Assembly (NCBI GenBank): GCA_964622035.1
Contig: CAZUPF010000001.1
Span: 1-49,622, forward strand
Reading direction: 5' to 3'
Length of the DNA: 49,622 nucleotides
Origin: an uncultured Candidatus Saccharibacteria bacterium
GTDB taxonomy: Bacteria > Patescibacteriota > WWE3 > JAUXAW01 > JAYEID01
This document shows positions 5,102-49,622 of the stretch, piece by piece; the stretch's first letter is position 1; each line of letters starts with the position of its first letter. The notes beneath the pieces were generated by a model. That model was not told the origin of the DNA and did no database searches. It saw only the letters and a program-made list of their open reading frames with translations. Position numbers and translations under genes: made by a program.

Positions 5102-5153
5102 TCCCTCCCTATATTAATACAATTTGGAAAGAGTTTTCTTTCGCCGGTACGAT

Positions 5154-5201
5154 CTCTAAAAAGAAAAACTCCCCAGGAGGTATAAACCTTTTGGGGAGTT
5201 T
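5154..5201 (-). terminator. intrinsic terminator
   Basis: Minus RNA has a 10-bp stem AAACTCCCCA/TGGGGAGTTT (5201-5166) followed by TTTTCTTTTT. Downstream of the stop at 5226. Confidence 0.7.
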
Positions 5202-5225
5202 CGGTTGCTGGAACAGGGCACTCGC

Positions 5226-5525
5226 TTACCCAACGCGGGCCCAACGGGCACGGGTCTTTGCATCAACGCTAACCCAGAACGCTGCTTGCATCCAAAGTAT
5301 CCCTAAAATACCTAGTAGGGCAAGCTTCGGTAGCGTCATCGGTACCCACACCACCATTAGCGCCTCCAAAACAAGGCACATTCTCGCGATAGCAACCACT
5401 AGGAGAACGCACACTAACAACAACCCCGGGCTTACCCGGCAACGTGCGGCGCGCCTGTCTAGCACAGACGAGGTAACGGCAGCTGTCGCTACCAACAACC
5501 AGGGACATATATAGAATAGAATCAA
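5226..5525 (-). CDS. small hydrophobic membrane protein
   Basis: ORF 5226..5546. The best start is TTG 5525, with GAAGGAGG 5 nt upstream. A terminator follows. Confidence 0.55.
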   Translation of the reverse strand: MILFYICPWLLVATAAVTSSVLDRRAARCRVSPGLLLVCVLLVVAIARMCLVLEALMVVWVPMTLPKLALLGILGILWMQAAFWVSVDAKTRARWARVG

Positions 5526-5630
5526 GGTCGCCTCCTTCTTCTGCAAACTACTGAAACATCTCCCTTTTCCGATTAGGATCTAAGTGTAACAGGAAAAACA
5601 GCCGTGGTCAATCTTATAGTTAGAAGAGGA

Positions 5631-6660: not shown

Positions 6661-6676
6661 TGCCTCCCCCTCTCTA

Positions 6677-6716
6677 GAAAAAGATCTCCCCTGGAAAACG
6701 ACTATCTCCAGGGGAG
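6677..6716 (-). terminator. intrinsic terminator
   Basis: Minus RNA has a 10-bp stem CTCCCCTGGA/TCCAGGGGAG (6716-6686) followed by ATCTTTTTC. It lies 20 nt past the stop at 6736. Confidence 0.7.
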
Positions 6717-6735
6717 TAGCGCGCCGGTTGGGATT

Positions 6736-7038
6736 TTAGCCCCCGAGAAGAACACCGCCCTCGGTTCCATTCTGCCGACGACATTTCCGACCATATTCCT
6801 TTGCTCCCCGAGCCACCCCCTCAGTTGCGGGAAAAACAACGTAGAGAGCAATACCTATATCGGCAAAGGCGGTTACTATTCCGGGCAGGGGGCCCACCAA
6901 ACGGGGGAGTGCTGGCCAGAACGCCCAGAGCGGTGAGTGCCATGAGCACCCGAAGCCCATACGCCGCAAGACATGAGAGGTGCATCTCCGTTTCTCCTTT
7001 CTACAAATACCTCCGCAACACACACTCGATAATTTCAC
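6736..7038 (-). CDS. questionable small membrane protein, frame ambiguous
   Basis: The tracked ORF has no SD. A 54-codon ORF in another frame (6985 down to 6821, MHLSCLAAYGLRVLMALTALGVLAS...) has AAAGGAG 8 nt upstream. The terminator sits right after the stop of the tracked frame. See findings. Confidence 0.3.
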   Translation of the reverse strand: MKLSSVCCGGICRKEKRRCTSHVLRRMGFGCSWHSPLWAFWPALPRLVGPLPGIVTAFADIGIALYVVFPATEGVARGAKEYGRKCRRQNGTEGGVLLGG

Positions 7039-7062
7039 TATAGCACGCAGAAATACGGGACG

Positions 7063-7906: not shown

Positions 7907-8539
7907 CTAATCACCGCCTCTCAATTTACTTTCAACTACAGTAACTATTCTACCAAAAACATCCTCCACCGTCCCCGAGGCGTCAATGTCCGCCCACCGA
8001 CCGCGGAACTCAAGCATCTGGGGAGCAGCCCGGTATCCCTCGACCGCCCCCTCAAAAAACCGCAGACCCTCCTCCTCGAACTTATCGCCCAGCTGATCAA
8101 AAGTCCTCGCCACACTTTCGCGAATATCCATATCTAAGTAAAGTACCAAATCGGGCCAGACCAAACCGAGGGCCTCCCGGTTAATCCGCAAAACCACCTC
8201 TAGACCGAGACCCCGACCGTAACCCTGATACGCTAAGCTGGTAATAAAACTCCTGTCGGAAACGACTATCCCACCAGCAGCAATGACCGGTATAACCACC
8301 TTTCGCAATGTCTGGGCGCGGGAAGCGGCGTATAAATAAGCCTCACAGACCGCGTCCATCTTCTCCCGGTAGGTTGTGCCCTGTACCGCCCTCCGAATAC
8401 CTTCGGCAATCTCGCTCCCACCAGGCTCTCTCGTCCAAACTACCTGCCGCTCGGGATACTTTTTCTGAAGATATTCAACCAGCTTCTTTGACTGGGTGGT
8501 CTTGCCGGTTCCCACAATAGCCTCGAAAACAATATACAT
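7907..8539 (-). CDS. tmk: thymidylate (dTMP) kinase
   Basis: P-loop GTGKTTQ and TREPGG motif. TAGACT -10 box lies 6 nt upstream of the ATG. A 2-nt gap separates it from the next gene. Confidence 0.92.
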   Translation of the reverse strand: MYIVFEAIVGTGKTTQSKKLVEYLQKKYPERQVVWTREPGGSEIAEGIRRAVQGTTYREKMDAVCEAYLYAASRAQTLRKVVIPVIAAGGIVVSDRSFITSLAYQGYGRGLGLEVVLRINREALGLVWPDLVLYLDMDIRESVARTFDQLGDKFEEEGLRFFEGAVEGYRAAPQMLEFRGRWADIDASGTVEDVFGRIVTVVESKLRGGD

Positions 8540-11264: not shown

Positions 11265-11360
11265 TCCCCCATCTTACCAAAAACGGGCCTAGGCCACCTG
11301 GGGTTTGGCCTCCCACTTGCCCCTCTCGCCGTTTTGGTGCTAGGGTTACATTGTGCGCCT

Positions 11361-12176
11361 ATGAAAAGAAAATTCTTAGTGGTCACAATTGCCCTGGGCC
11401 TGCTGGCACTGTTAGCTATAGTTGCCCAACGCCCCCAATCTCCGGAGGAGGGCTCCCGCGATCTTGAAAACATTCCCCAAAACCCCCCTAGCCAAGTTTG
11501 CGCCAAAATTTCCCAACCGGGGGATGTATATCATTGCCTGGCAGTTGTAAACCAGGATCCAACTTTTTGCGAAAAAATGGGGCGGGGCGAGGACAAGAGT
11601 GTCTGCTTAGCCTTGGCCAATAAGGATCTGTCACTCTGCCAAAAGATCAAAGACAACGAGACTAAACAAATGTGCCACCAAGAACTAAGTTTCAAAGCCA
11701 GCCAGATCGATTACTGTGACGGGGCGAGCGATCCCGACAAGTGTTATTTTTCTTTCATCCATCGACTTTATTGGCGAGGGCGTTCGGGTGAGATAACAGC
11801 AGAGTATTGCCAAAAGCTTAGCGAGTCTGCCGGCGGAGAGTTGGCTTTCCGAGACACCTGCTGGGCGCTTAAGAATCACAATCCGACCCTTTGCCAAGGC
11901 AATGAGCACTGTTTGTCCTTTTTTGAACAGCCACTATCTTTTTGTATAAATAACAAACTCAAGAGTAGCGAGGACGACTGTCTGCGCGATCGGGCATTAA
12001 CTTCCCGGGACCCCGCCCTTTGCGAACGGATTGGTGACGAAGAAATTCGGGACCGGTGCTACGGCAGCTACTCGACACACATCTCGCCCGACCTGGCTCT
12101 TTGTGAAAAAATCATCGGTAAGATGACGAAGAATGCGTGCTATACGGAGTACGCCATCAATCTTTCTGAAGACTAG
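11361..12176 (+). CDS. secreted or anchored Cys-rich repeat protein (18 Cys)
   Basis: ATG 11361 gives MKRKFLVVTIALGLLALLAIVAQ. About eight repeats follow of the form C-x10-14-C-(E/Q)-K-I, e.g. CLAVVNQDPTFCEKM, CLALANKDLSLCQKI, CLRDRALTSRDPALCERI, CYGSYSTHISPDLALCEKI. Confidence 0.75.
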   Translation: MKRKFLVVTIALGLLALLAIVAQRPQSPEEGSRDLENIPQNPPSQVCAKISQPGDVYHCLAVVNQDPTFCEKMGRGEDKSVCLALANKDLSLCQKIKDNETKQMCHQELSFKASQIDYCDGASDPDKCYFSFIHRLYWRGRSGEITAEYCQKLSESAGGELAFRDTCWALKNHNPTLCQGNEHCLSFFEQPLSFCINNKLKSSEDDCLRDRALTSRDPALCERIGDEEIRDRCYGSYSTHISPDLALCEKIIGKMTKNACYTEYAINLSED

Positions 12177-12279
12177 GGCGGGGCTTGGGAAGGGACATTG
12201 CAAATTTTCGCATAACGCCACTGCGGCCGCATAGCGTTTATAGACTATCCCCACGATTACCAGTTCTTCTCGGCGGCGC

Positions 12280-14103
12280 TCACTTAGCTACTTTTCGCGC
12301 AGTGCGAACCCGGGCGGTATGGTCAAGAAGCCTCTTCCTCATTCTCAGAGACTGGGGTGTAATTTCCAACAGCTCATCTTTAGCCAAAAAACCAAAGCAC
12401 TGCTCCATACTTAGCTCGAGAGTAGCGTGCGGCAGGACAATTGTTTCTTCGGCCGCGGAGCGGACATTAGTTAGGCGTTTTTCCTTGCAAACATTAATCT
12501 CGATATCGTTTTCACGAGCATTGGCCCCAATAATCATCCCGCTGTAAACTTCGGCTTTTGGTCCAACGAAAGTCACCCCCCGGCCTTGAGCCACCCGTAG
12601 TCCGTAAGTAGTAGCCTTACCGGTAGTGGCGGCTAGTAAAACACCTTTGCGGTTTTCGGGAGGCATTGCGCCTATTTTTTCGTAGCACAGAAAGATGGAA
12701 CTCAAAACCGCCGTGCCTTTAGACAGGGTGAGCAAAGTATTGCGAGAACCCAAAAGTCCCCGAGTCGAGATCTTAAAAACCAAACGCGAAGAATTGTCGG
12801 TCAGCTGTTCCTGTGAAATGAGGGTTCCCCTCCGCCGCCCAATCTCCCCTTGAATCGCCCCCAAGTAATCATTTTCGACATCGCAGGTAAGCTCTTCCAC
12901 CGGCTCCAGCTCTTCTTCGTCCACCGTTTTGGTGATCACTTGGGGCCGACCGACCTCGATCTCAAACCCTTCGCGACGCAGGTTCTCCAAAAAAACAGTG
13001 AGGTGCAGCTCCCCGCGTCCGGAGAGAATCATTTGCCCCGCGGAGGTGATTTCCAGCCGCATCGCGATGTTGGTCTGTAACTCTTTTTCAATCCGCTTTA
13101 AAATTTGTCGGCTGGTGAGAAACTTTCCTTCCCGACCCTTAAAAGGAGAAGTGTTTGGCCCAATAGAAATACTGAGCGTCGGTTCAGTAAGTTCTATTAC
13201 CGGTAGGGCCTCGGGCTTATCGATAGCCGTAACCGTATCGCTGATATCGGCACCGGTAATCCCGGTAAGAGCGACAATTTCCCCCGCCAGTGCTTGAGGG
13301 GTCTCCACACGGTGTAATCCCTTATTTACATAAACCTTATCCACTTGGACCGCCTCCTTACTACCGTTGGGTTTCAGCAACAGCACCTGTTGTTTGGGGG
13401 TAACTCGGCCCCTGGTTATTCGTCCAATAGCGTATTTCCCCTGGAAATCATCCCAATCTAGGGCCGAGACTAAAAATTGTAGCGGGCCTTCTGCATCTTG
13501 GGCCGGCGCCGGAATATTCTCGAGAATAGCCGCAAAAATTGGTGCCAAGTCGGACGGCGCGGTAACATCTATCGGTTGCTGATTCCAGGCCTTTCCCTCC
13601 CGACCAATAGCATAGAGAACCGGAAACTCAAGCTGCTCGTCACTACTCGCTAGCTCCAAAAACAGATCGCCGATTTTGCTCAAAGTTTTCTCAACGCGAG
13701 CAGTTTTCCTGTCTATTTTATTGATGACGACAATAACTTTTAGGTTTGCTTCAAGGGCTTTTTTCAGTACAAACTTTGTTTGCGGCATTGGGCCCTCTTG
13801 AGCATCAACTAGGAGGAGAGCCCCATCGGCCATATTTAGGGTTCGTTCGACCTCACCACCAAAATCAGCGTGTCCGGGAGTATCAATGATGTTTATCTTC
13901 GTCCCCTGATACTCGATAGCAGTGTTTTTCGCCAAAATGGTAATCCCCCGCTCTTTTTCCTGATCATTAGAATCCAAAATCCGCTCCTGATTAATCTCCG
14001 CTTCGTTGGTGCGAAAGGTTTTCGATTGTTTGAGTAGGCCATCCACCAAGGTCGTCTTGCCATGATCGACATGGGCAATAATGGCCACATTTCTTAAGTT
14101 CAT
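12280..14103 (-). CDS. typA: translational GTPase BipA/TypA
   Basis: G1 AHVDHGKTT, G3 DTPGHADF, G4 NKID, length 607 aa with EF-G-like domains. TATAAT lies 13 nt upstream of the ATG. Confidence 0.95.
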   Translation of the reverse strand: MNLRNVAIIAHVDHGKTTLVDGLLKQSKTFRTNEAEINQERILDSNDQEKERGITILAKNTAIEYQGTKINIIDTPGHADFGGEVERTLNMADGALLLVDAQEGPMPQTKFVLKKALEANLKVIVVINKIDRKTARVEKTLSKIGDLFLELASSDEQLEFPVLYAIGREGKAWNQQPIDVTAPSDLAPIFAAILENIPAPAQDAEGPLQFLVSALDWDDFQGKYAIGRITRGRVTPKQQVLLLKPNGSKEAVQVDKVYVNKGLHRVETPQALAGEIVALTGITGADISDTVTAIDKPEALPVIELTEPTLSISIGPNTSPFKGREGKFLTSRQILKRIEKELQTNIAMRLEITSAGQMILSGRGELHLTVFLENLRREGFEIEVGRPQVITKTVDEEELEPVEELTCDVENDYLGAIQGEIGRRRGTLISQEQLTDNSSRLVFKISTRGLLGSRNTLLTLSKGTAVLSSIFLCYEKIGAMPPENRKGVLLAATTGKATTYGLRVAQGRGVTFVGPKAEVYSGMIIGANARENDIEINVCKEKRLTNVRSAAEETIVLPHATLELSMEQCFGFLAKDELLEITPQSLRMRKRLLDHTARVRTARKVAK

Positions 14104-15425: not shown

Positions 15426-16040
15426 ATGCTTCCCTTTGGCCACACGGCCGTTGCTTACCTAATTGCCCAAATTCCTCGTTGGCGGGGGCGAGCCTTGAAT
15501 CGAGCGGAAACCCTTCTGGTTCTTTTTTGTGGGAGTATTTTTGATCTGGATCTCTTGGCACTAGCTCTTTTGGGAATCCCGGGAGCTCTCCACCACTACT
15601 ACCCCGGGCACACTCCCCTACTGGGACTGGTTTGGCTGGGTTTTCTCTACATTGTGCTACGCCGATCTTTTCCCCGGCGGGTTTTCTTTTGGGCTGGGCT
15701 GGCAATGCTGGGACACCTAATTTGTGACGACTTGAGTTACTGGTTCTCCCTATGTGGTCTGGAGCACCCGGTCACCCAACCACAGATCTTCTGGCTGTTT
15801 CCTCTTGATCCGCGCCACCTACCGGAATTGCGCTACGCGTGGGAAGTTTACTTACAACAAAGGCCAACATGGCAAACATTTCTCAACTGGTATCTGGTTT
15901 CCCGACCGCTCCTTTTTTATCTAGAAACTAGCGTAGTTTTAATCGCGCTGGTTATTTTTCTCCGCAATCGGGGCAAATTAGCTCCAGCAGATAGGGAAAA
16001 AGAGAAGGGCCAAAACCATATAGGCTTTGACCCTCGATAA
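15426..16040 (+). CDS. polytopic membrane protein, YdjM/DUF457-like metal-dependent hydrolase (tentative)
   Basis: N-terminal MLPFGHTAVAYL and GHLICDDLSYW resemble that family. It has 5-6 hydrophobic helices. The 3' end overlaps the convergent 15952..16770 ORF. Confidence 0.6.
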   Translation: MLPFGHTAVAYLIAQIPRWRGRALNRAETLLVLFCGSIFDLDLLALALLGIPGALHHYYPGHTPLLGLVWLGFLYIVLRRSFPRRVFFWAGLAMLGHLICDDLSYWFSLCGLEHPVTQPQIFWLFPLDPRHLPELRYAWEVYLQQRPTWQTFLNWYLVSRPLLFYLETSVVLIALVIFLRNRGKLAPADREKEKGQNHIGFDPR

Positions 16041-17030: not shown

Positions 17031-17070
17031 GGAAAAAAGAAAAGGGCCAAAACCATATCGGTTTTGACCC
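17031..17070 (-). terminator. intrinsic terminator of the ABC exporter gene (copy B of the 40-nt element)
   Basis: Minus RNA GGGTCAAAACC-GATAT-GGTTTTGGCCC (one G-U pair) is followed by TTTTCTTTTTTCC. It lies 24 nt after the stop at 17094. Confidence 0.75.
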
Positions 17071-17093
17071 TATTGTGATGTGCCGAAATGACC

Positions 17094-18830
17094 CTAGCTT
17101 TCCGTCTGCAGCCGAACCATTTCAGCATAGAGCGGACAGCTGTAGATCAACTCCTCGTGGGTTCCCTCGGCCACCTTCTCCCCGCCAGCGAGGACAACAA
17201 TCTTATCGGCACGACGTATCGTGGAAAGGTTGTGGGCGATGATAACCGCCGTCTTGCCTGCTAGAATTGCCTCCATCTGGGTTTGAATTTCCCGTTCGGT
17301 GATGGCATCTACGGCATTGGTGGCTTCGTCCAGAATCAGAATCGGGCTATCGGCCAGAATCGCTCGGGCCAGAGCCACCCGCTGCTTTTGTCCGCCGGAG
17401 AGACGAATCCCCCGCTCACCTACTCTCGTCTGGTACTTTTCGGGCAAGGATTCGATAAACTGCCAGATCCCCGCCAACTCCGCCGCCCGAGCGATTTCCT
17501 CCAAACTCGCTTCTGGTCGGGCAAAGGCGATGTTTTCGCAAATTGTGGCATCAAAAATGAAAACATCGTCCCCCTGCGGCACATAGGCAAAGAGTTGGAG
17601 TAGCGCGGGCAGGGACCATTCGGTGATATCGATCCCCCCAACCAGGATCCGACCACGCTGGATTTGCCAGAGACCGGTGATGAGTTTACGGACAGTAGTC
17701 TTTCCCGCACCGGACGGGCCGACGAGGGCAACTATTTGCCCGGGCGCGATATCCAGGCTGAGACCGCGAAGCGCCCCGTTACTCCCATCGTACTTCCCAC
17801 TGTAGGAGAAGCACACCCCTTCCATAGTAATTCCGACCGGCGGAACGGTTTGGTGTTCTGACAACTGACTACCCACCTGCGGTTGCTGCTCCAGAAGATC
17901 AACGAGTCGAGCAGCGCTTTCACTAGCTTCGGCGGCGCGCGTGAACAGGCGCGCGAATCGCCAGAAAGAGTGGAACAGCTTCTCGGTCAGGATACTGACG
18001 TAAACCAAGCCAGCGATATCTAGCGTACCCTGATAAAGTTGCCAAATCCAGATGGCGAGGATGGATCTTCGAGCCACCGAAAGGAGGCGCAGGCGCCAGC
18101 GGTTGCTGAAGTAGATACCGATTCTCGCTTCAGTAGTGCCATCGGCCACGATATCATCATGCAAATCATGGTACATGTGCAAGAATCTCGCCTCTTGGCT
18201 AAACATCCGCGCCGTCTCCACCGATTGGACCATCTCGGTACTCTTAGCCCACTCTTCTTCATAGCGATCGTGGCGACGCTTCTTCAGTGGTTGTCGTCGT
18301 CGGTAATCAACGATCGATACCCACATAAAGACGGCTAGCGCCGCGGCGGCCACCCCAACCACCCAAGGACTGAAGATCAGAAGTGGGATGATCGTCAGAA
18401 TAGCCTGGATTAGCGTCGGGACGAACTCCCAACTTAGCGCCTCCAAAATCTCCACCACTTTGCTAACCCCACGATTAACCTTGCCAACCAACGCCCCCGA
18501 GTTGTGCTTCTGGTGCCAAGCCATCTCCATCTCCAGAAACTTACGGATCGCTTTGGTCTTCAAAAAGCGATAGATGGGATACTCGTGGCGGACGATGATA
18601 TGCCAATCTACAGCATTATCCAGCCGCATAAACAGCTCGTCATAGAGCAGTAAGCCGCCCAGAAGACCGGCCCAAACAAGCATCTCCGTCCGCTCACCAA
18701 AGAGGCGAATGGCTCCACTGATTACATAGCCCTCAACAATCTGCAGAGCCTCGTAAACCACAATCAACCCTAAATACCCTCCAAAAACCCGGTGAAAAGG
18801 CTTAAGGAGTTGCCAAAGTTTCTTAATCAT
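17094..18830 (-). CDS. ABC exporter, fused permease/ATPase (MsbA-like)
   Basis: N-terminal 6-helix domain, Walker A GPSGAGKTT, signature LSGGQKQR, Walker B ILILDEAT, H-loop IIAHN. GGGAGGGGAG precedes the ATG. Confidence 0.92.
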   Translation of the reverse strand: MIKKLWQLLKPFHRVFGGYLGLIVVYEALQIVEGYVISGAIRLFGERTEMLVWAGLLGGLLLYDELFMRLDNAVDWHIIVRHEYPIYRFLKTKAIRKFLEMEMAWHQKHNSGALVGKVNRGVSKVVEILEALSWEFVPTLIQAILTIIPLLIFSPWVVGVAAAALAVFMWVSIVDYRRRQPLKKRRHDRYEEEWAKSTEMVQSVETARMFSQEARFLHMYHDLHDDIVADGTTEARIGIYFSNRWRLRLLSVARRSILAIWIWQLYQGTLDIAGLVYVSILTEKLFHSFWRFARLFTRAAEASESAARLVDLLEQQPQVGSQLSEHQTVPPVGITMEGVCFSYSGKYDGSNGALRGLSLDIAPGQIVALVGPSGAGKTTVRKLITGLWQIQRGRILVGGIDITEWSLPALLQLFAYVPQGDDVFIFDATICENIAFARPEASLEEIARAAELAGIWQFIESLPEKYQTRVGERGIRLSGGQKQRVALARAILADSPILILDEATNAVDAITEREIQTQMEAILAGKTAVIIAHNLSTIRRADKIVVLAGGEKVAEGTHEELIYSCPLYAEMVRLQTES

Positions 18831-18880
18831 CTCCCCTCCCTACATTAAGTTTTAATGGTGCTTTAGTTTTTGTCTCCCCT

Positions 18881-18915
18881 AACAAAAAAGACGCCGCGGT
18901 TTTCACCGCAGCGTC
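18881..18915 (-). terminator. intrinsic terminator 50 nt upstream of the ABC exporter start
   Basis: Minus RNA GACGCTGCGG-TGAAAA-CCGCGGCGTC (10 bp, one G-U valid only on minus) is followed by TTTTTTGTT. Confidence 0.75.
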
Positions 18916-19189
18916 TAGCCGCAAGGAGCCGGGGTTCTTGTTATCTAAACCGCCACCTCTTACGTCCAAACGCCACGGCCAAAAGGTTCTCATCCATAGA
19001 GATACCGGCCGCGAAACGCGGGTCAGTTTTTACTGCTGTAATCAAGCGCAAATAAAACATAATCAATAAGCTGTTTCTTCCTACTAACTCGGGCTTTTTC
19101 TCGTCACCCGAGAAAGTGAGGCCCCAGACTATCAGATGCGTGCTGGGCTGTCAAGCTACGGTTCCGCGGTCATCCGCACCGAATAATTA

Positions 19190-19495
19190 CTACCCACCGG
19201 GCTTGCCCGTGGACCAAATCAAAAACAATCTCTTTTTGAACCCGCCACACTTCTCTCTTTTTTGCTTCTGCTGCCTCTCTACCTCTCGAAAGCTTATTTT
19301 GTAATAAGCGGCAATATATTTCACCAGCTCCAAAACATCCGCCAGCTCGGCCGCTTCCTCAATCAGCTTTCTCTTTAACTCTTTTTCGAACTCAGCCTCG
19401 CCAAGAGTCCGCATATCATACCCATCCTTATTGGCCTCCATAATTTTGGGAATTTTGTCTCTGATGAGCTTACGGTGGTAGTATCTCTTGCGCAT
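19190..19495 (-). CDS. MazG-like all-alpha NTP pyrophosphohydrolase (tentative)
   Basis: KLIRDKIPKIM, ELADVLELV and KREKCGGFKKRLFL fit the family pattern as I recall it. TAGAAT lies 9 nt upstream of the ATG. Confidence 0.6.
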   Translation of the reverse strand: MRKRYYHRKLIRDKIPKIMEANKDGYDMRTLGEAEFEKELKRKLIEEAAELADVLELVKYIAAYYKISFREVERQQKQKREKCGGFKKRLFLIWSTGKPGG

Positions 19496-20499: not shown

Positions 20500-20964
20500 C
20501 TAGAGGCGTTGGGTGGAGTCTATACTCCCCTGACGCCTTTTCTCTTTCACCAGGAGCACCACACTCCCCACTACACCGACCAGAAAGCCGATTGGACAGA
20601 CAAAAATAGCGATAATAAAAAACACCGCCTCGTCACCGGAACCGGCCGGACCCCAGAAATCAGGACCAAAAAAGTGGATAAGCAGACCATAAACAAGGTT
20701 GTGCAGCAAAATACTGGGGAGAAAAATGGCCACGGAAGCACCGGTCAAAAGCAAAAACTTTCTTAATGGCCCGGCAACAATGTGGCGCCGAGTCAGAACT
20801 ATTAACGCCACCCCCAAGAGAAGGAGGGAGGCCCCCGAAGCAATCATGAAAGGCAGCCCACCAACTTTTCTAAACCCCACAAAGACCATTATGCCCACGA
20901 GCACGGCAAAAAGCGCTGTCAGAGCGCAGAATACGGTAATTGTGGCTCGCCTTCCTCGCACCAT
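20500..20964 (-). CDS. membrane protein (4 hydrophobic helices)
   Basis: Hydrophobic 154-aa ORF. TAGAAT lies 9 nt upstream of the ATG. Confidence 0.65.
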   Translation of the reverse strand: MVRGRRATITVFCALTALFAVLVGIMVFVGFRKVGGLPFMIASGASLLLLGVALIVLTRRHIVAGPLRKFLLLTGASVAIFLPSILLHNLVYGLLIHFFGPDFWGPAGSGDEAVFFIIAIFVCPIGFLVGVVGSVVLLVKEKRRQGSIDSTQRL

Positions 20965-21323
20965 CTCGCCCCCATTCTACAGCACTCTATGGCAGAAACC
21001 AAACGGCCCCTTTCCCCTCCCCCACCGATTTGCTAAAGTCTAGCTAGATGAAGATTCCTCTTACCACAATCTTCAAACTAGTTTTCGTTTTAGTGTTGGG
21101 CTGGTGGGGGGTTTTTCAATATAAAAGGATCCCAACGGCGGTCGTTACGAGAATGCTCTGGCCCAGTACGCCGAACACGCCAAAGATTTACAGGGGATTG
21201 AAATAAAACCCTTGCTTTGGGGCGAGAGTTTGGAATTGGACTAATTTTGGGCCTTCGACTAGACTGGTCTTAGCTAACTATGCACCCCTTTACAACCTCC
21301 CCCTATACTGCTACAGTGAGCCA

Positions 21324-22874: not shown

Positions 22875-22906
22875 CGCAAGCAGCAACAGATCGGGTAGCA
22901 ATCACG

Positions 22907-22937
22907 CCAGGTAGCCAATACGGTTACCTGGTTTTTT
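22907..22937 (+). terminator. intrinsic terminator
   Basis: CCAGGTA / TACCTGG 7-bp stem with an 11-nt loop, then TTTTTT. Confidence 0.75.
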
Positions 22938-24505: not shown

Positions 24506-24580
24506 GCCGGGATAGCTCAATGGTAGAGCAACGCTTTCGTAAAGCGTAGGTTAGCGGTTCAAGCCCGCTTCCCGGCTCCA
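24506..24580 (+). tRNA. tRNA-Thr: tRNA-Thr, anticodon CGU, CCA encoded
   Basis: Hand-folded cloverleaf: acceptor GCCGGGA/TCCCGGC, D stem GCTC/GAGC, anticodon stem ACGCT/AGCGT with loop TTCGTAA, T stem AGCGG/CCGCT with loop TTCAAGC, discriminator T, CCA. Confidence 0.93.
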
Positions 24581-29036: not shown

Positions 29037-30303
29037 TAGCGTCCTGCCGTACCTTACGGCTAAACTCCCGAAACACAAACCAGGCAAGGAGAGAGAGAAC
29101 GAGCAGCTCGGTCACCCCGGTTATCGCCGCCGCCGCCAGCAGAGAGTAACGAGGGATAAAGAAGAAGTTTAGACCCAAATTCACAACTAGCGCTCCCCCG
29201 TAAACAAAGGGCAGAACTCGCTGCCGCTCCAAAGCCAGCAGAGTATGCATTAAAAGAGAGGTGATAAAGAAAACCGGCAGCGCCAGCAGGAGTAGCCTAA
29301 GTGCGGGAACGGCCTGGCCAAACTCCGCCCCGGCCAGAAAACGAATCAGCCACGGAGCCAGCGCCTCCCCAAAAACCACGCCCAAAACAGAAACCACCAG
29401 AAGGGATAGGAATGACTGCCGAAAGAGTTTTTCTGCCGCCGGCCAGCTCTCTTGGAACCGACGAACCAGCAAGGGGTAAACCGCGCTCATGAAAAAGAAA
29501 GGCACCGTCAGAGTAACCTCCAAAATCTTGAAGGCCGTACCGTAGTAACCCACCACCGCGCTATTTACCCGACCCCCCGGTAGCGGCAAGACCGAAAGCA
29601 TAAAGGAGTCAATCTTAAAATCAAGAATGTCGAAAATCAGGGCCAAACCAATCGGCAGCGTCAGCCGCAGCAGTTTACTAGCCAAGACTCTCTCCCATTT
29701 TATTTGGCGCCAGTCAATGAACCGCCTGGCCCAGAAGATACCCATTACGACCATTAGTAAATTTCCCAAGAGGGAACCCAGCGCCACCCAGAGAAGATCA
29801 CCAGAAAAATGGATCAGCCCAGCTACCAGACCCAGGTTTAGCAGAGCTCCTAAAACTTGCGCCGCCACCTGAAACTTCTGCTGAGAGTTGGCCTGAAAAA
29901 TAGTCTGCGTCGAAGAAAAGACAGCCATTAGGAAAAGGGTACTCAGGTTCAGGCCTGCCCCCAGCTTTACCAACGGGGAATATGGCAGGAAACGTAAGAC
30001 CACCAGGGCCACGACAGTAAAAAGCCCGGCCAGGCCGAGGCGTATCAGAAGCAGATTGGCGAAATAGCGCTGGGTGTTCTCTTCTTTTTTGGAGATTTCC
30101 CTGATCACTGTCGCGTTAAAGCCGAAATCGGCCATAATCCAAAACAGGGTCGGAAAAGTGATCATAATCATGAAATCACCAAAACCAGCGGGGCCAAAGT
30201 GCCGAGTAATCAGCATCGTTACGAGGAGGGTAGAAGAGGCGGTGATGGCTTTACCAACAAGCTGCACGAGGGTATTTCTAGCAATCTTTTTCCGCGCCGA
30301 CAT
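29029..30303 (-). CDS. polysaccharide flippase (Wzx/MOP family)
   Basis: 12+ hydrophobic helices with a typical N-terminus (KKIARNTLVQLVGK). ATG 30303 lies 6 nt after an extended -10 box, TGCTACAAT. Confidence 0.75.
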   Translation of the reverse strand: MSARKKIARNTLVQLVGKAITASSTLLVTMLITRHFGPAGFGDFMIMITFPTLFWIMADFGFNATVIREISKKEENTQRYFANLLLIRLGLAGLFTVVALVVLRFLPYSPLVKLGAGLNLSTLFLMAVFSSTQTIFQANSQQKFQVAAQVLGALLNLGLVAGLIHFSGDLLWVALGSLLGNLLMVVMGIFWARRFIDWRQIKWERVLASKLLRLTLPIGLALIFDILDFKIDSFMLSVLPLPGGRVNSAVVGYYGTAFKILEVTLTVPFFFMSAVYPLLVRRFQESWPAAEKLFRQSFLSLLVVSVLGVVFGEALAPWLIRFLAGAEFGQAVPALRLLLLALPVFFITSLLMHTLLALERQRVLPFVYGGALVVNLGLNFFFIPRYSLLAAAAITGVTELLVLSLLAWFVFREFSRKVRQDASV

Positions 30304-32156: not shown

Positions 32157-33209
32157 ATGAACTACACCGCACCGTCAACGGAGTTTCGGCGAGAGTTTCT
32201 CAGTCTCGTTGGCCAAGCACAGACAATCCTACTTACCGCCCACGTTTCCCCAGATGACGACTCAATTGCTTCAGTTTTATCCCTGTTTTACATACTAAAA
32301 CTAAAGTATCCCAAGAAAACACTACGAATCGTCTATACCGGCCAGCCGACCAAAAAGTACCAAAGCTTCGCCAACAGCGATCAGGTAGAGTTTGTGGAAG
32401 ATTTGGCCAACCACCTAGGAAAGGCCGATCTGCTCATTTTTCTTGATGGGAGCCAGTACCACCGCTTCTCCAAGCAGCCCGAGAAATTGCAAAGGTTTGC
32501 CGGAGACACGATTTGCATCGACCACCACAGCTCACCAATTGACCAATTTAGCCTAAGCCTGGTAGCTCCCACCATATCTTCCACGGCCGAGATCGTCTAT
32601 CTCAGTCTCTGCCAGGACGAGTCAATCGACAAACCGCTAGCGGAGCTCTTCCTCCTGGGAATTCTTGGTGATACAAATAATTTCAGCTACCTCAAACCCC
32701 ACCAAACCGACACTCTGATTACCGCGCAGAAACTGCTCTCAATTAGTCAGGTCGAAATCCAAACGTTCAAAGCACGCTACAGCACTATCTCCACCAAAGT
32801 CTTCGATCTGGTTTCCGCGTTCGCAGAAAACACCCAATTCCACAAACTCCCCGGCTGGCCGCCCTTCCAAACGAGTCATATCACCCGCAACTACCTCGAA
32901 GGCAGGCAGTACACCGAAAACGAAGTCGCCGACGCTTGCCACACCTACATGAGCTATTTTCTAAGGAGTATTACCGACTACCAGTGGGGATTTGTCACCT
33001 ACCCTCTTTCCGGCAGCGATTGCAAAATATCCCTGAGATCTCTACCCGACAGCGTCAACGTCCGAGAGATAGTTGAACGAATGGAAATAGGTGGTGGGGT
33101 GAACCTATCCGCTGGGGGCACCTTTAAAGCCGAGAGCGATCAAGAGCAACAACCGGCCGAGTGCCTCAGCCAGGTAATTGATTGGCTGAAGACCGCGCGG
33201 CCGCGCTGA
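32157..33209 (+). CDS. DHH/DHHA1 phosphoesterase (NrnA-like)
   Basis: Motif I HVSPDDDSIAS, II DGSQ, III IDHHSS, IV GILGDTNNF, plus a DHHA1-like GGV..AGG. The last 12 codons are encoded by repeat copy 2. Confidence 0.85.
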   Translation: MNYTAPSTEFRREFLSLVGQAQTILLTAHVSPDDDSIASVLSLFYILKLKYPKKTLRIVYTGQPTKKYQSFANSDQVEFVEDLANHLGKADLLIFLDGSQYHRFSKQPEKLQRFAGDTICIDHHSSPIDQFSLSLVAPTISSTAEIVYLSLCQDESIDKPLAELFLLGILGDTNNFSYLKPHQTDTLITAQKLLSISQVEIQTFKARYSTISTKVFDLVSAFAENTQFHKLPGWPPFQTSHITRNYLEGRQYTENEVADACHTYMSYFLRSITDYQWGFVTYPLSGSDCKISLRSLPDSVNVREIVERMEIGGGVNLSAGGTFKAESDQEQQPAECLSQVIDWLKTARPR

Positions 33210-46466: not shown

Positions 46467-47577
46467 CCCCAGATAACATCGCCGCTATCTCCCCTGCAAT
46501 ATTCTGCGCCCCATCTAACCGAATTAGATTCTGCGCCCGCTCTCCCGCCCCCCGCCTCTCCGCCAACCCCCTCCTAAAAGATGTCACGCGTCCCAGCAAC
46601 GATTCGGAGGTCAGATCTTTCTGGGGGAGGATTGCCGCCAAACCAATACCCTCCAGCATCTCCGCATTTCTCTGCTGCTCGTTGTGTGATACCCAAGGGA
46701 TAGGCACGAGAATGGCCGGCTTCCCTAACGCAGCCAGCTCGTAAACCGTGTGGGCTCCCCCCCGACCAATAACAAAATCGGCCTGACGGTAAACATCCGC
46801 AATCTCCCCTTGAGAAAAGTAGTCCTTAACAAGATATCGGGTCCGGAGCTCGGTGGGAAGGGAAGCCCGTGCCTGTAACAACTCTTCAGAATCCAAAGAA
46901 CCGCACTGGTGAATTATAAGAAACTCGGCTAGAAGCTTTTCCAAACAACCCGCCACCGCCTGGTTAATAGTTTGGGAACCCTGTTTACCACCAGTAATGT
47001 AGATTGTCGGTGGTTGCCGGCCGGTCCGTACCGGCTCTTTAGCCAGAGATACTATTTCCTTTCTTAGAGGTAACCCGGTCAAGACAATCTTTTTCTCAGG
47101 GAAAAATTTCGCCGATTGGGGCCAGGAGATAAAAATCTTTCTGGCAAACCTAGAGATGAAGCGGTTCGACCAGCCAGATACCACCGTTTGCTCGTGAGTC
47201 ACTGCCGGAATTCCCAGCAGCCACCCCGCAGCCACCACTGGCGCCGCCAAGTAGCCACCGAAGGAGACAATCAAACTAGGACGAATAGTAAATAGCCACC
47301 ACAAAGACTGAAAGAACCCGCCAACCACCCGTAGCCACTCGATTAGGTTAATGGTGCGGTAAACCTTCCCCGCCTTAAGATCATAAAAAGGGATACCGCG
47401 AGCGATCACCTCTCGGTACTCGGCACTTTCAATCCTTACGCCGTGTAGCGCGTATTTGTGCCCAATAAAGAATGGTTGGTAGTGGTCGAGCGCGTCAATA
47501 ACTGCCAGGGCCGAGTTGTGATGACCACCGGTAAAGACCAATCTTGTTGTCTCGTTCACGGAAGCTTCAACATTCAT
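46456..47577 (-). CDS. murG: undecaprenyldiphospho-muramoylpentapeptide beta-N-acetylglucosaminyltransferase
   Basis: GT28 pattern (FTGGHHNSALAV, ITGGKQGS, RGGAHTVYELAALGKPAILVP). ATGA overlap with ftsW. Confidence 0.9.
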   Translation of the reverse strand: MNVEASVNETTRLVFTGGHHNSALAVIDALDHYQPFFIGHKYALHGVRIESAEYREVIARGIPFYDLKAGKVYRTINLIEWLRVVGGFFQSLWWLFTIRPSLIVSFGGYLAAPVVAAGWLLGIPAVTHEQTVVSGWSNRFISRFARKIFISWPQSAKFFPEKKIVLTGLPLRKEIVSLAKEPVRTGRQPPTIYITGGKQGSQTINQAVAGCLEKLLAEFLIIHQCGSLDSEELLQARASLPTELRTRYLVKDYFSQGEIADVYRQADFVIGRGGAHTVYELAALGKPAILVPIPWVSHNEQQRNAEMLEGIGLAAILPQKDLTSESLLGRVTSFRRGLAERRGAGERAQNLIRLDGAQNIAGEIAAMLSGGGS

Positions 47578-48758
47578 CTTCTACTCCCCAAGCCACCCAC
47601 CGCCGAAATATTCAGCAGAATGCCTAAACCAAAAAGGGTAAAAACCATGGACGAGCCCCCGTAAGAAATAAAAGGCAGGGTAACCCCCGTCAGCGGTATC
47701 AGCGCCGTCATCGCACAGAGATTAACTAAAACCTGCAAACTCATCCAACCAATGATTCCAGCAGCCAATAAGCGCGCGTAGTTATCGGGAGCATCCCTAG
47801 CGACCAAAAACCCACGCCAGAGGAAAAGTAAGAATACCAGAACAAGGGCGGTTGTGCCCAAAAACCCAAACTCCTCACCAATAATAGCAAAAATGGAGTC
47901 CCCCACCGTTTCGGGCAGATACTCATATTTTTGACGCGACTCCCCCAATCCCAAGCCGAACAGCCCCCCGGAACCCAGGGCGATAAGAATCTGCCGCAAA
48001 TGGTAACCAGTAGAAAGGGGGTCCGCCGCCGCGGGATCCAAAAAGGTCAGCAGCCGCGCCCGGCGGTAGGGCGATGTCCAAACGAATCCCACCCCAGCCA
48101 GCAAAAAAACCACCGAGCTTATCAATAGTGGTAAAATCTTGGCCCCGGCCACAAAATAGAGCCAAACGCCAACAAAACAGGCCAGAGCGGCAGTGGCAAA
48201 ATCCGGCTCCAGAAGAATCAACCCCCCCATCGCTGAAAGCAGAACATACACCGATATAACATCCGGTAGAGGAGTCTTGACTCCCCGCCGCCCTTGGGGC
48301 GCGAGCCAGGCGGACAGATACAAAACCAAAGCCAGCTTCGCCAGCTCGGATGGTTGAAAGCTTAGGTAACCCAACAGCGGTAAACTGGGTAGAACCCCCG
48401 GAGGGTTAAGCACTATCCAGCGCCGCGCGCCATTAACCTCCGGTACAAATTTATCCAGCAGAGGGAAACTAACAAACCGGGGAATCACCAAAAAAATTAG
48501 CAGACCAAGGGTTATCACGAAGATGGGAAGGGCTACTTGGCGCAAGCGTTGGTAATCAATAAGGAAAACCAGAAAACCGCCCACTCCCCCCAAAACGACC
48601 CAGGAAAGCTGCTTTAACAGGAAATGGTACTTACCACCAAAAACATCGTGGGCGTAGACAACCGAGGCATCGTAGACCATCAAAACACCAAAAACAATCA
48701 GCCCGACGGCGGTGAAGAGGAGAATTGGGTCAGGTTTTTTGGAGACCGGTCGTAACAT
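47574..48758 (-). CDS. ftsW: SEDS-family lipid II flippase/polymerase FtsW
   Basis: FtsW/RodA helix pattern in dcw context. ATG 48758 (MLRPVSKKPDPILLF...) is preferred, because a TATACT box lies inside the longer GTG 48839 ORF. Confidence 0.88.
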   Translation of the reverse strand: MLRPVSKKPDPILLFTAVGLIVFGVLMVYDASVVYAHDVFGGKYHFLLKQLSWVVLGGVGGFLVFLIDYQRLRQVALPIFVITLGLLIFLVIPRFVSFPLLDKFVPEVNGARRWIVLNPPGVLPSLPLLGYLSFQPSELAKLALVLYLSAWLAPQGRRGVKTPLPDVISVYVLLSAMGGLILLEPDFATAALACFVGVWLYFVAGAKILPLLISSVVFLLAGVGFVWTSPYRRARLLTFLDPAAADPLSTGYHLRQILIALGSGGLFGLGLGESRQKYEYLPETVGDSIFAIIGEEFGFLGTTALVLVFLLFLWRGFLVARDAPDNYARLLAAGIIGWMSLQVLVNLCAMTALIPLTGVTLPFISYGGSSMVFTLFGLGILLNISAVGGLGSRR

Positions 48759-48858
48759 ACTTGAAAGAAGAAGCCCCCCAAGACAAAAAGGTGCCACGCC
48801 CTGAGTCAGTATAGCACGGGAGTGGCGGAAGAGGCACACCTAAATACCGTTTAGCCAG

Positions 48859-48887
48859 TTGACTCATAGCTTAAAAGGCGGTAGACT
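48859..48887 (+). promoter_or_regulatory. sigma70-type promoter of the orphan unit
   Basis: TTGACT (48859-48864), 17 nt, TAGACT (48882-48887). Confidence 0.55.
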
Positions 48888-48893
48888 AGGCAC

Positions 48894-49371
48894 GAAGTTT
48901 GCCAATAAAGCAGAGGTACTAAGAAGGAAGGAAGGGAGAGCAAGTATGTCCGAGCTTGGGCGGAGAACGAGTACCAGCAACCAGATAGCCGAGGAGCTAC
49001 GCTGGTTACGGGTGCTGCGCAGGATTAGCGATGCCCTTACCGGCCGAGTATTTTACACCGGTAGGGAGGGGAGGTGAGCCGTGACATTTGGATGCATGGG
49101 CATTAAATTGAGAGTAGGGCGGGTACCACGCCATATCCAGAAGGCCCTCCGGCTCCACAACAGATCCCGAGCCTCCGCGAAAAGTGCCAGGCACCCCCGC
49201 CACCAAAGGGGGAGGCGGTCACGCCGCCAGCAGCGTTGGACAACAGTTGGTGGAAGGGGGTAACTCCCAACAAGCGGCCGGCGATATGGCCGCCCACCAG
49301 GATCGCCTGAGGCTGACATTACTTATGGCAGGTTCTGCGAATAAACCATTCGCGGCGCCTGCCGTCTTTTT
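48894..49371 (+). other. orphan transcription unit: candidate structured ncRNA or two SD-led micro-ORFs (43 aa at 48946..49077; 60 aa at 49081..49263)
   Basis: Bounded by the promoter above and terminator 49327..49371. Hand-counted GC is 67-68 percent. Many local hairpins have G-U pairs valid only on the + strand. No known RNA family signature recognised. Confidence 0.35.
49327..49371 (+). terminator. intrinsic terminator
   Basis: Two-tier hairpin: GGCAGG/CCTGCC outer stem, GCGAAT/ATTCGC inner stem with loop AAACC, followed by GTCTTTTT. Confidence 0.75.
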
Positions 49372-49450
49372 ACCCCCAATTTCACCCGACGGGTACAAAG
49401 GTATTTTTCCGATGTGATAACCCCTTGACCACTCTGTTATACTATGAGTA

Positions 49451-49622
49451 ATGAAGGCTCTCTTACGACGCGGTTTAAGAGTCATCCTCAAATACCTTAC
49501 CCACGCGGTGCTCAGCAAGCACCAACCACAAATCATCGCCCTCGTGGGCAGTCATGAGACGGCCATTGCCCGAGAAGCACTCTACACGGTTCTGCACGAG
49601 CATCTCCCAACCCGCCAAAACA
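49451..49622 (+). CDS. Mur ligase (MurF-like) N-terminus, truncated by window edge
   Basis: Hand translation: MKALLRRGLRVILKYLTHAVLSKHQPQIIALVGSHETAIAREALYTVLHEH... This resembles MurF N-termini, but the P-loop position reads GSHETA. TATACT lies 7 nt upstream of the ATG. Confidence 0.55.
   Translation, partial: MKALLRRGLRVILKYLTHAVLSKHQPQIIALVGSHETAIAREALYTVLHEHLPTRQN

Follow-up and report, generated by a model that had tools for sequence, protein, structure and literature searches.

The 693-nt gap at 48759-49451 of contig CAZUPF010000001.1, whose 49,622 nucleotides are referred to here as the window, probably holds a self-contained bicistronic micro-protein operon specific to the lineage of its host, an uncultured bacterium of the Patescibacteria (Candidate Phyla Radiation, CPR). 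The gap lies between ftsW, on the minus strand, and a plus-strand gene whose ATG is at 49452. In the organization proposed here, a sigma-70-type promoter (48859-48887) would start a transcript of about 480 nt ending at a terminator (49327-49371), and ribosomes would load at an ATG led by a Shine-Dalgarno (SD) sequence, translating a first open reading frame (ORF1, 43 aa) that is free in sequence and length. Termination of ORF1 on or next to the start of ORF2 would then deliver the ribosomes to this second frame. Because the ORF1 stop lies at the ORF2 start in every genome compared, ribosomes would probably reach ORF2 in two ways, through its own SD and through termination-reinitiation coupling. 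ORF2 would be the functional product, most likely a basic peptide that binds nucleic acids or the ribosome. The best-supported description is that of an unannotated orphan small-protein unit.

Conserved signals and reading frames of the unit

The arrangement of ftsW (minus strand), a gap of 589-616 nt and a 277-aa gene (plus strand) is present in contigs L170 and L171, which encode the proteins P0130 and P0131, and also in L174 and L175, these last two being nearly identical to L170 and adding no diversity. Another contig, L169 (encoding P0132), begins inside the gap and covers only its right part and the 277-aa gene. The route to these relatives was a minus-strand 273-aa gene of contig L166, which matched the start of the gene downstream of the gap in the window. 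The alignment of the window with L170, L171 and L169 (alignment A2, the four genomes hereafter) has a mean column identity of 64%, and its conserved blocks are the -10 box of ftsW, the unit promoter, the SD and start of both ORFs, the end of ORF2, the terminator, a palindrome and the promoter of the 277-aa gene (Table 1).

Both hexamers of the unit promoter, TTGACT-N17-TAGACT, are identical in L170 and L171 and the spacer nearly so; a first-pass annotation of the window, made from its letters alone, had placed the promoter at the same position, and a consensus scan recovers it. Downstream, a purine run resembling an SD precedes the ORF1 ATG in all four genomes. At the other end of the unit, the two-tier hairpin with a T5 tract that had been proposed as a terminator folds far better than dinucleotide shuffles (z=-6.0), and its sequence is kept in the four genomes, z lying between -4.0 and -5.7 for the relatives. 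A G+C-rich stem-loop, a T run directly after it and a position at the end of the unit are all found there, as in Rho-independent terminators, and termination is predicted at this site. This prediction is credible because the genome uses intrinsic terminators after other genes, comparable hairpins with T runs being found at 22906-22932, 17043-17071 and 6686-6716. Between ORF2 and the terminator, the segment with local hairpins is absent in L171, where 6 nt separate the stop from the terminator, and is poorly conserved in L169 and L170, the stop-to-terminator distance ranging from 6 to 65 nt across the four genomes.

The two SD-led micro-ORFs of the first-pass annotation, at 48946-49077 and 49081-49263, have the coordinates and the peptides that it gave. 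ORF1 has 43 aa in the window and 21, 47 and 23 aa in the relatives, the similarity is confined to the first ~8 residues, and a neutral-redistribution test detects no amino-acid constraint. Since neither sequence nor length is conserved, ORF1 looks like a coupling leader ORF and not like a partner protein. Its stop lies next to the ORF2 start or overlaps it in each of the four genomes (TGA-GCC-GTG, TAA-GCC-ATG, ATGA and TGA-GCC-ATG). The L171 copy of ORF1 is annotated as a 47-aa gene, and neither ORF is called on the contig of the window. A single-sequence AlphaFold model of ORF1 is one helix (pLDDT, the predicted local distance difference test score, of 85).

ORF2 has 60, 54, 54 and 56 aa in the four genomes, with an isoelectric point (pI) of 12 and 25-37% Arg. 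Its start position is conserved, being GTG in the window and ATG in the three relatives, and so are its SD and its TAA stop. The SD is nearly the same as that of the window gene at 17094-18830 (gggaggggagATG), and the SDs of the unit resemble those of other window genes. The peptides have motifs in common, including PGPIPARILRRLRRGRA and a C-terminal TVG(R/G)RG, and the 3' end of the frame forms a conserved block in the alignment, ACAGTTGG.AG.AGGGGGTAA. Moreover, in the nucleotide-level alignment the four indels within ORF2 (9, 15, 12 and 6 nt) are all multiples of 3, whereas outside the ORFs this holds for 2 of 17 indels, whose lengths are mostly 1, 2, 4, 5, 10, 11, 14 or 25 nt (Fisher p=0.0025).

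The substitutions also point to the ORF2 frame. Nei-Gojobori pN/pS (nonsynonymous over synonymous differences per site) is 0.56-0.84 in this frame for the six pairs of genomes, against 0.78-1.69 in the shifted frames, and the third codon positions are the most variable in six of six pairs. When one sequence was held fixed and the observed substitutions were redistributed at random, the BLOSUM62 score in frame gave z values of 2.3, 2.0, 1.4, 0.3, 0.9 and 3.6 for the six pairs, off-frame values scattering around 0. Start, stop, SD, indels and frame bias of ORF2 are thus those of a protein-coding sequence in comparative terms, with a weak selection signal. The first-pass annotation had favored a novel RNA and kept two SD-led micro-ORFs as the coding alternative; it is this alternative that is favored by the conserved SDs and starts, the stop-start coupling, the in-frame indels of ORF2 only and the weak bias toward synonymous and conservative substitutions in the ORF2 frame only. 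Coding on the minus strand was also considered and rejected, there being no minus-strand ORF open or conserved across the four genomes.

Several observations weigh against this reading. ORF2 has a host-trained hexamer score of -0.49, lower than that of any true-gene segment sampled, and both ORFs score below the 2nd percentile of real genes; the three-base periodicity of the gap is weak, 0.7-1.7 against a window median of 1.55. These tests have little power when an ORF has 60 codons or its composition is biased toward Arg, and the first 57 codons of the genuine neighbor gene have a hexamer score even lower than those of both micro-ORFs. Also, the pN/pS of ORF2 is high for a real protein, indicating weak selective constraint, and it comes from a protein-guided codon alignment, which favors the ORF2 frame. 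The comparison involves only four distinct sequences of one narrow clade, with pairs that are not independent, and at the DNA level the ORF2 of the window is only ~50% identical to the other three. An open frame of 55 codons has a chance of ~0.24 at 65% GC, by our own estimate. ORF2 is called by gene callers in no genome, a search of 1.84 billion representative proteins gives no homologue of it, and it belongs to no Pfam family; in an exact look-up of 10 ORFs of the gap, none corresponds to a called protein. Finally, single-sequence AlphaFold gives a model of low confidence (pLDDT 60), with an Arg-rich helix predicted at residues 17-37, and is uninformative.

Table 1. Features of the gap and its flanks (window coordinates; UTR, untranslated region; TSS, transcription start site)
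Feature	Position	Strand	Basis
ftsW, 394 aa, left flank	47574-48758	-	ORF list; Pfam PF01098, E=1e-89; L161 and L162 have the same 394-aa product among their called genes
Probable ftsW promoter, extended -10 TGCTATACT / TGNTATACT, ~43 nt before the ftsW ATG	48808-48816	-	Read by eye; putative role
Unit promoter TTGACT-N17-TAGACT	48859-48887	+	Consensus scan
Putative 5' UTR, with SD GGGAG at 48934-48938, 7 nt before the ATG	48894-48945	+	TSS predicted from the -10 box
ORF1, MSELGRRTSTSNQIAEELRWLRVLRRISDALTGRVFYTGREGR (43 aa), which probably serves as a leader or coupling ORF	48946-49077	+	Start codon and SD conserved
SD of ORF2, GGGAGGGGAGG, 6 nt before the GTG	49064-49074	+	Sequence reading, four-genome comparison
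ORF2, 60 aa, pI 12, 25% Arg, probable functional product	49081-49263	+	Comparative coding tests
5-bp hairpin CCCCC...GGGGG in ORF2	49194-49212	+	RNAalifold pairing of columns 124-128 with 137-141
Variable stretch of the 3' UTR, hairpin-bearing and apparently dispensable	49264-49326	+	Comparison of four genomes
Intrinsic terminator, two-tier stem and T5	49327-49371	+	Fold z=-6.0 against dinucleotide shuffles
Palindrome CACCCGACGGGT(G), candidate operator upstream of the neighbor promoter	49383-49394	.	Invariant block in alignment A2; putative function
Promoter of the 277-aa gene, GTGATA-N18-TATACT with TG, ending 8 nt before the ATG	49414-49443	+	Consensus scan
5' part of the gene of a conserved hypothetical protein of 277 aa (complete as P0132), not a true MurF	49452-49622	+	Homologue comparison

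Alternative readings of the gap

The first-pass annotation described the gap as hairpin-dense and proposed a structured RNA of ~480 nt. A reading of this kind, in which the transcript acts as a non-coding or dual-function small RNA (sRNA) and the ORFs are incidental or secondary, would fit the conserved promoter and terminator, the GC-richness of the region relative to the genome, the poor coding scores and the lack of a protein homologue. It would also fit the 5-bp hairpin within ORF2, whose closing pair is C-G, G-C or A-U among the four genomes and which keeps its pairing through one further U-A/C-G change, though in too few sequences for this hairpin to count for much. However, only the terminator folds better than shuffled sequences. 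Between the start of ORF1 and the stop of ORF2, folding is no stronger than in shuffled sequences, whichever of the four genomes is taken (z from -0.9 to +0.95; -0.92 in the window); the 5' half (48894-49120) has z=-0.07, and the whole unit of 486 nt gives z=-1.8 (plus strand) and z=-1.3 (minus strand). A value of -3.8 at 49185-49375 is mainly owing to the terminator. In sliding windows of 120 nt, plus-strand z falls below -3 only where the whole terminator is included, a weaker run of about -1.7 to -1.9 being seen just upstream of it (49150-49329). Moreover, the covariation terms of RNAalifold are about zero (+0.78 and -1.62 kcal/mol; four sequences give low power), and the hairpin segment 3' of ORF2 is missing from L171. 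In agreement with the first-pass annotation, which had seen no signature of a known RNA, no Rfam family reaches its gathering score in the gap, and the matches at E<=10 are limited to two low-complexity models of eukaryotic long non-coding RNAs far below threshold; ARAGORN places the tRNAs of the window only at 24506 and 34301, with neither a tRNA nor a tmRNA in the gap. Indels that are exclusively in frame and conserved start and stop positions would be unexpected for a pure RNA. Taken together, an sRNA is an unlikely explanation, and the note of structure in the first-pass annotation is better restricted to the terminator.

Attenuation by a leader peptide is far more doubtful. In this case the Arg-rich ORF2 would sense charged tRNA-Arg and control the read-through of the terminator into the operon of the 277-aa gene and an extracytoplasmic function (ECF) sigma factor, and the order of the elements is suitable, with small ORF(s), a terminator and, on the same strand and 80 nt further on, an operon, besides the 25-37% Arg of ORF2. 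Nonetheless, the terminator would not be an attenuator of the neighbor because the neighbor has its own conserved promoter, located between the terminator and the ATG and found even in L166, L172 and L173, where the unit is missing. No antiterminator pairing is found at a consistent position, the best alternative duplexes differing by genome; the ORF2 stop and the terminator are variably spaced, as described above; and ORF2 is far longer than the classical leader peptides of trp, his and leu operons, the targets not being arginine genes. The earlier view that the unit is independent of the leader of its neighbor therefore holds: the promoter and terminator of the unit are conserved where the contigs cover them, and the promoter of the neighbor is separate. 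As to the spacer explanation, the gap would be a non-functional product of rearrangement in the dcw (division and cell wall) cluster, its features being kept only through the close kinship of the four genomes. The junction is indeed prone to rearrangement, relatives with 62-68% FtsW identity carrying varied genes there, and the unit occurs nowhere else among 175 loci, with no similar phage or plasmid DNA. Still, the gap has already diverged (see the column identity and the ORF2 identity above), yet its signals are exactly placed, ORF2 stays open across four in-frame indels, and a strong terminator is kept in all four genomes. We regard a spacer as about as unlikely as an sRNA, and the micro-protein operon remains the preferred reading.

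The distribution of the micro-protein operon is narrow. In a synteny survey through FtsW of genome and metagenome collections, 160 loci showed no DNA or translated similarity to the gap, and the closest FtsW relatives (68% identical) have mraY directly upstream of ftsW and no homologous gap. A search with nhmmer and a hidden Markov model of ORF2 over the 175 loci found the unit only in the narrow clade of the window, and the phage and plasmid collections contained no DNA resembling the gap.

The junction upstream of ftsW is much rearranged in other genomes. For example, three tRNAs and murF-mraY lie there in L166 (1979-2226), murB with a 37-aa and a 145-aa gene in L172 and L173 (4327-5918), and mraY, ftsQ or a cohesin-domain gene in other relatives (62-68% FtsW identity). 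Within their dcw regions, L164 and L168 also carry genes of the bAvd / 23S_rRNA_IVP type, which are accessory genes of diversity-generating retroelements. Other origins of the gap were examined and rejected. A remnant of a tRNA cluster, suggested by the three tRNAs of L166, is not supported, the gap having no similarity to those tRNAs, and tblastn finds no match to mraY, murF or neighboring genes. A repeat or mobile element is discarded, the gap being single-copy in the window and the flanking inverted repeats crossing each other in a way that looks like chance. For a replication origin, no DnaA box like TTATCCACA (<=1 mismatch) is present in the gap, which is GC-rich.

Allele pattern, known systems and significance

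In the right part of the gap, the comparison of L169 with the window shows an uneven pattern. From 49424 on, over 199 nt that include the promoter of the neighbor and its first 171 coding bases, L169 is 98% identical to the window, whereas across ORF1 and ORF2 it is 49-59% identical and nearer to L170 than to the window. The aligned stretches (L169:1-513 and window 48939-49451) show an abrupt identity boundary near 49424. This suggests either recombinational replacement of the micro-protein cassette between close strains or a very rapid evolution of the cassette. A bolder proposal would be that ORF2 founds a family of extremely basic micro-proteins of one Patescibacteria lineage, maybe ribosome- or RNA-binding, at a locus that is an allelic hot spot of recombinational replacement or diversifying selection; we consider this a long shot, slightly less probable still than an sRNA or a spacer.

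Translationally coupled bicistronic small-ORF operons, with ATGA or TGA-NNN-ATG junctions and termination-reinitiation, share with the unit an adjacent or overlapping stop and start (in the four genomes), an SD for each ORF, one promoter and one terminator. They differ in that both products of the unit are <61 aa and ORF1 is unconserved, the coupling being predicted here. In the case of ORF2, ribosomal bL34 and the mycobacterial proteins bS22 and bL37 are arginine-rich bacterial micro-proteins. The DUF1127 proteins, such as YjiS, are likewise of this type (PMC11707872, PMC12501420). With all of them ORF2 has in common a size of ~55 aa, an extreme basicity and an Arg-rich predicted helix, but the resemblance is compositional only, without a relative among the representative proteins mentioned above. 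Identity with ribosomal L34, suggested by an FQP and RR-rich motif seen by eye, or with DUF1127 was rejected because a Pfam scan of the four ORF2 and four ORF1 peptides at E<=10 matched neither family, the ORF2 peptides having no Pfam match at this threshold.

Leader-peptide attenuators such as trpL, hisL and leuL resemble the unit in having a short ORF rich in one residue, an intrinsic terminator and then an operon. In the unit, however, the downstream operon has its own promoter, there is no conserved antiterminator, ORF2 has 54-60 aa and the spacing from its stop to the terminator is variable. SgrS/SgrT, RNAIII/hld and SR1/SR1P are dual-function sRNAs. Like the unit, they consist of a short independent transcript (predicted in the present case) with promoter, terminator and small ORFs; unlike them, the unit shows no sign of conserved base-pairing or of a structured RNA domain.

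CPR bacteria have pared-down ribosomes and regulation. In such bacteria, a conserved and strongly basic product of 55-60 aa encoded next to the division cluster could serve as a nucleic-acid- or ribosome-binding factor specific to the lineage. Annotation of metagenomes routinely misses small proteins, and here ORF2 is called nowhere. The case also indicates that a GC-rich gap that is hairpin-dense to the eye need not be an RNA gene. If the micro-protein reading is true, the gain would be modest, amounting to a single orphan family of micro-proteins within one clade; the significance would be higher if ORF2 were a ribosomal or RNA-binding factor, or the locus a diversifying cassette.

Flanking genes and further observations

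The FtsW of the window has its best identity (68-70%) to proteins of metagenome-assembled genomes labelled Patescibacteria, Saccharibacteria, WWE3 or Gottesmanbacteria. Left of the gap, the minus-strand genes are ftsZ-, ftsA- and ftsQ-like, then murG and ftsW. The block CAGTATA.CACGG at the site of the putative ftsW -10 box is common to the window, L170 and L171. Contigs of the same species (L161, L162 and L163) are 99.6-99.95% identical to the window. L162 (99.6%) has no single-nucleotide polymorphisms (SNPs) with respect to the window across 48887-49366, which counts in favor of the micro-protein reading. Four SNPs fall in 48818-48845, and the other six belong to coding sequence (~2 kb). Thus, 4 of the 10 SNPs (48818, 48824, 48843 and 48845) fall within 28 nt, on the stretch that separates the -35 box of the unit from the putative -10 box of ftsW.

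The first-pass annotation had pointed to a long, GC-rich gap with ORFs in all six frames. The length measured here agrees, the six-frame ORFs are seen in the ORF list, and GC is 0.63-0.68 around 49100-49300 against ~0.50 in ftsW, an excess that is at least partly a consequence of the Arg codons. Its further remark that most junctions of the window are under 150 nt is roughly true, although a crude gene map contains ~17 gaps of >200 nt, some of which are filter artefacts (e.g., 11265-12279 and 29088-30198). Other gaps of 350-530 nt in this map, at 5102-5630, 6661-7062, 18831-19189 and 20965-21323, have no Rfam match at gathering score. With regard to terminators, near-identical 13-bp hairpins, AGGGTCAAAACCGATATGGTTTTGGCCCT and GAGGGTCAAAGCCTATATGGTTTTGGCCCTT, are found ~1 kb apart at 17043-17071 and 16005-16035 (minus strand) and may be a repeated terminator element.

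On the right flank, the gene had been taken as murF-like, which is a misassignment. Its N-terminus weakly resembles those of Mur ligases, but the protein has no Pfam Mur domain and no relative in the PDB, and its motif GSHETAIAREA stands where the Mur ligases of the relatives have GSYGKTNTARA, the GKT of the P-loop being replaced by HET. The first 57 residues of P0132, complete in L169:514-1347, are identical to those of the window, and P0130 and P0131 are close relatives (84-88% identical). The family (P0121-P0143) consists of Patescibacteria proteins of 272-279 aa with no Pfam domain and no sequence relative in the PDB; a word-index protein search with the 57-aa N-terminus gave no match. Where the gene adjoining the 277-aa gene is seen (L166 and L171-L175), it encodes an ECF-type sigma factor.

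The promoter of the 277-aa gene, as GTGAYA-N18-TGTTATACT ~8 nt before the ATG, is kept in L166 and in L169-L173, and hence also in L166, L172 and L173, without the micro-ORF unit. The 277-aa gene thus has its own promoter, which would probably give a leaderless or near-leaderless mRNA. Upstream of it, the palindrome CACCCGACGGGTG is invariant in the four genomes, 20-45 nt from the -35 box of the 277-aa gene and with two copies in L169, and is a candidate binding site of a regulator. Finally, a -10-like box (TATAAT, TAGACT or TAGAAT) lies 7-12 nt before the ATG, with no SD, at several other genes of the window (12280-14103, 32157-33209, 7907-8539, 19190-19495 and 20500-20964), which suggests that leaderless mRNAs may be frequent in the host genome.

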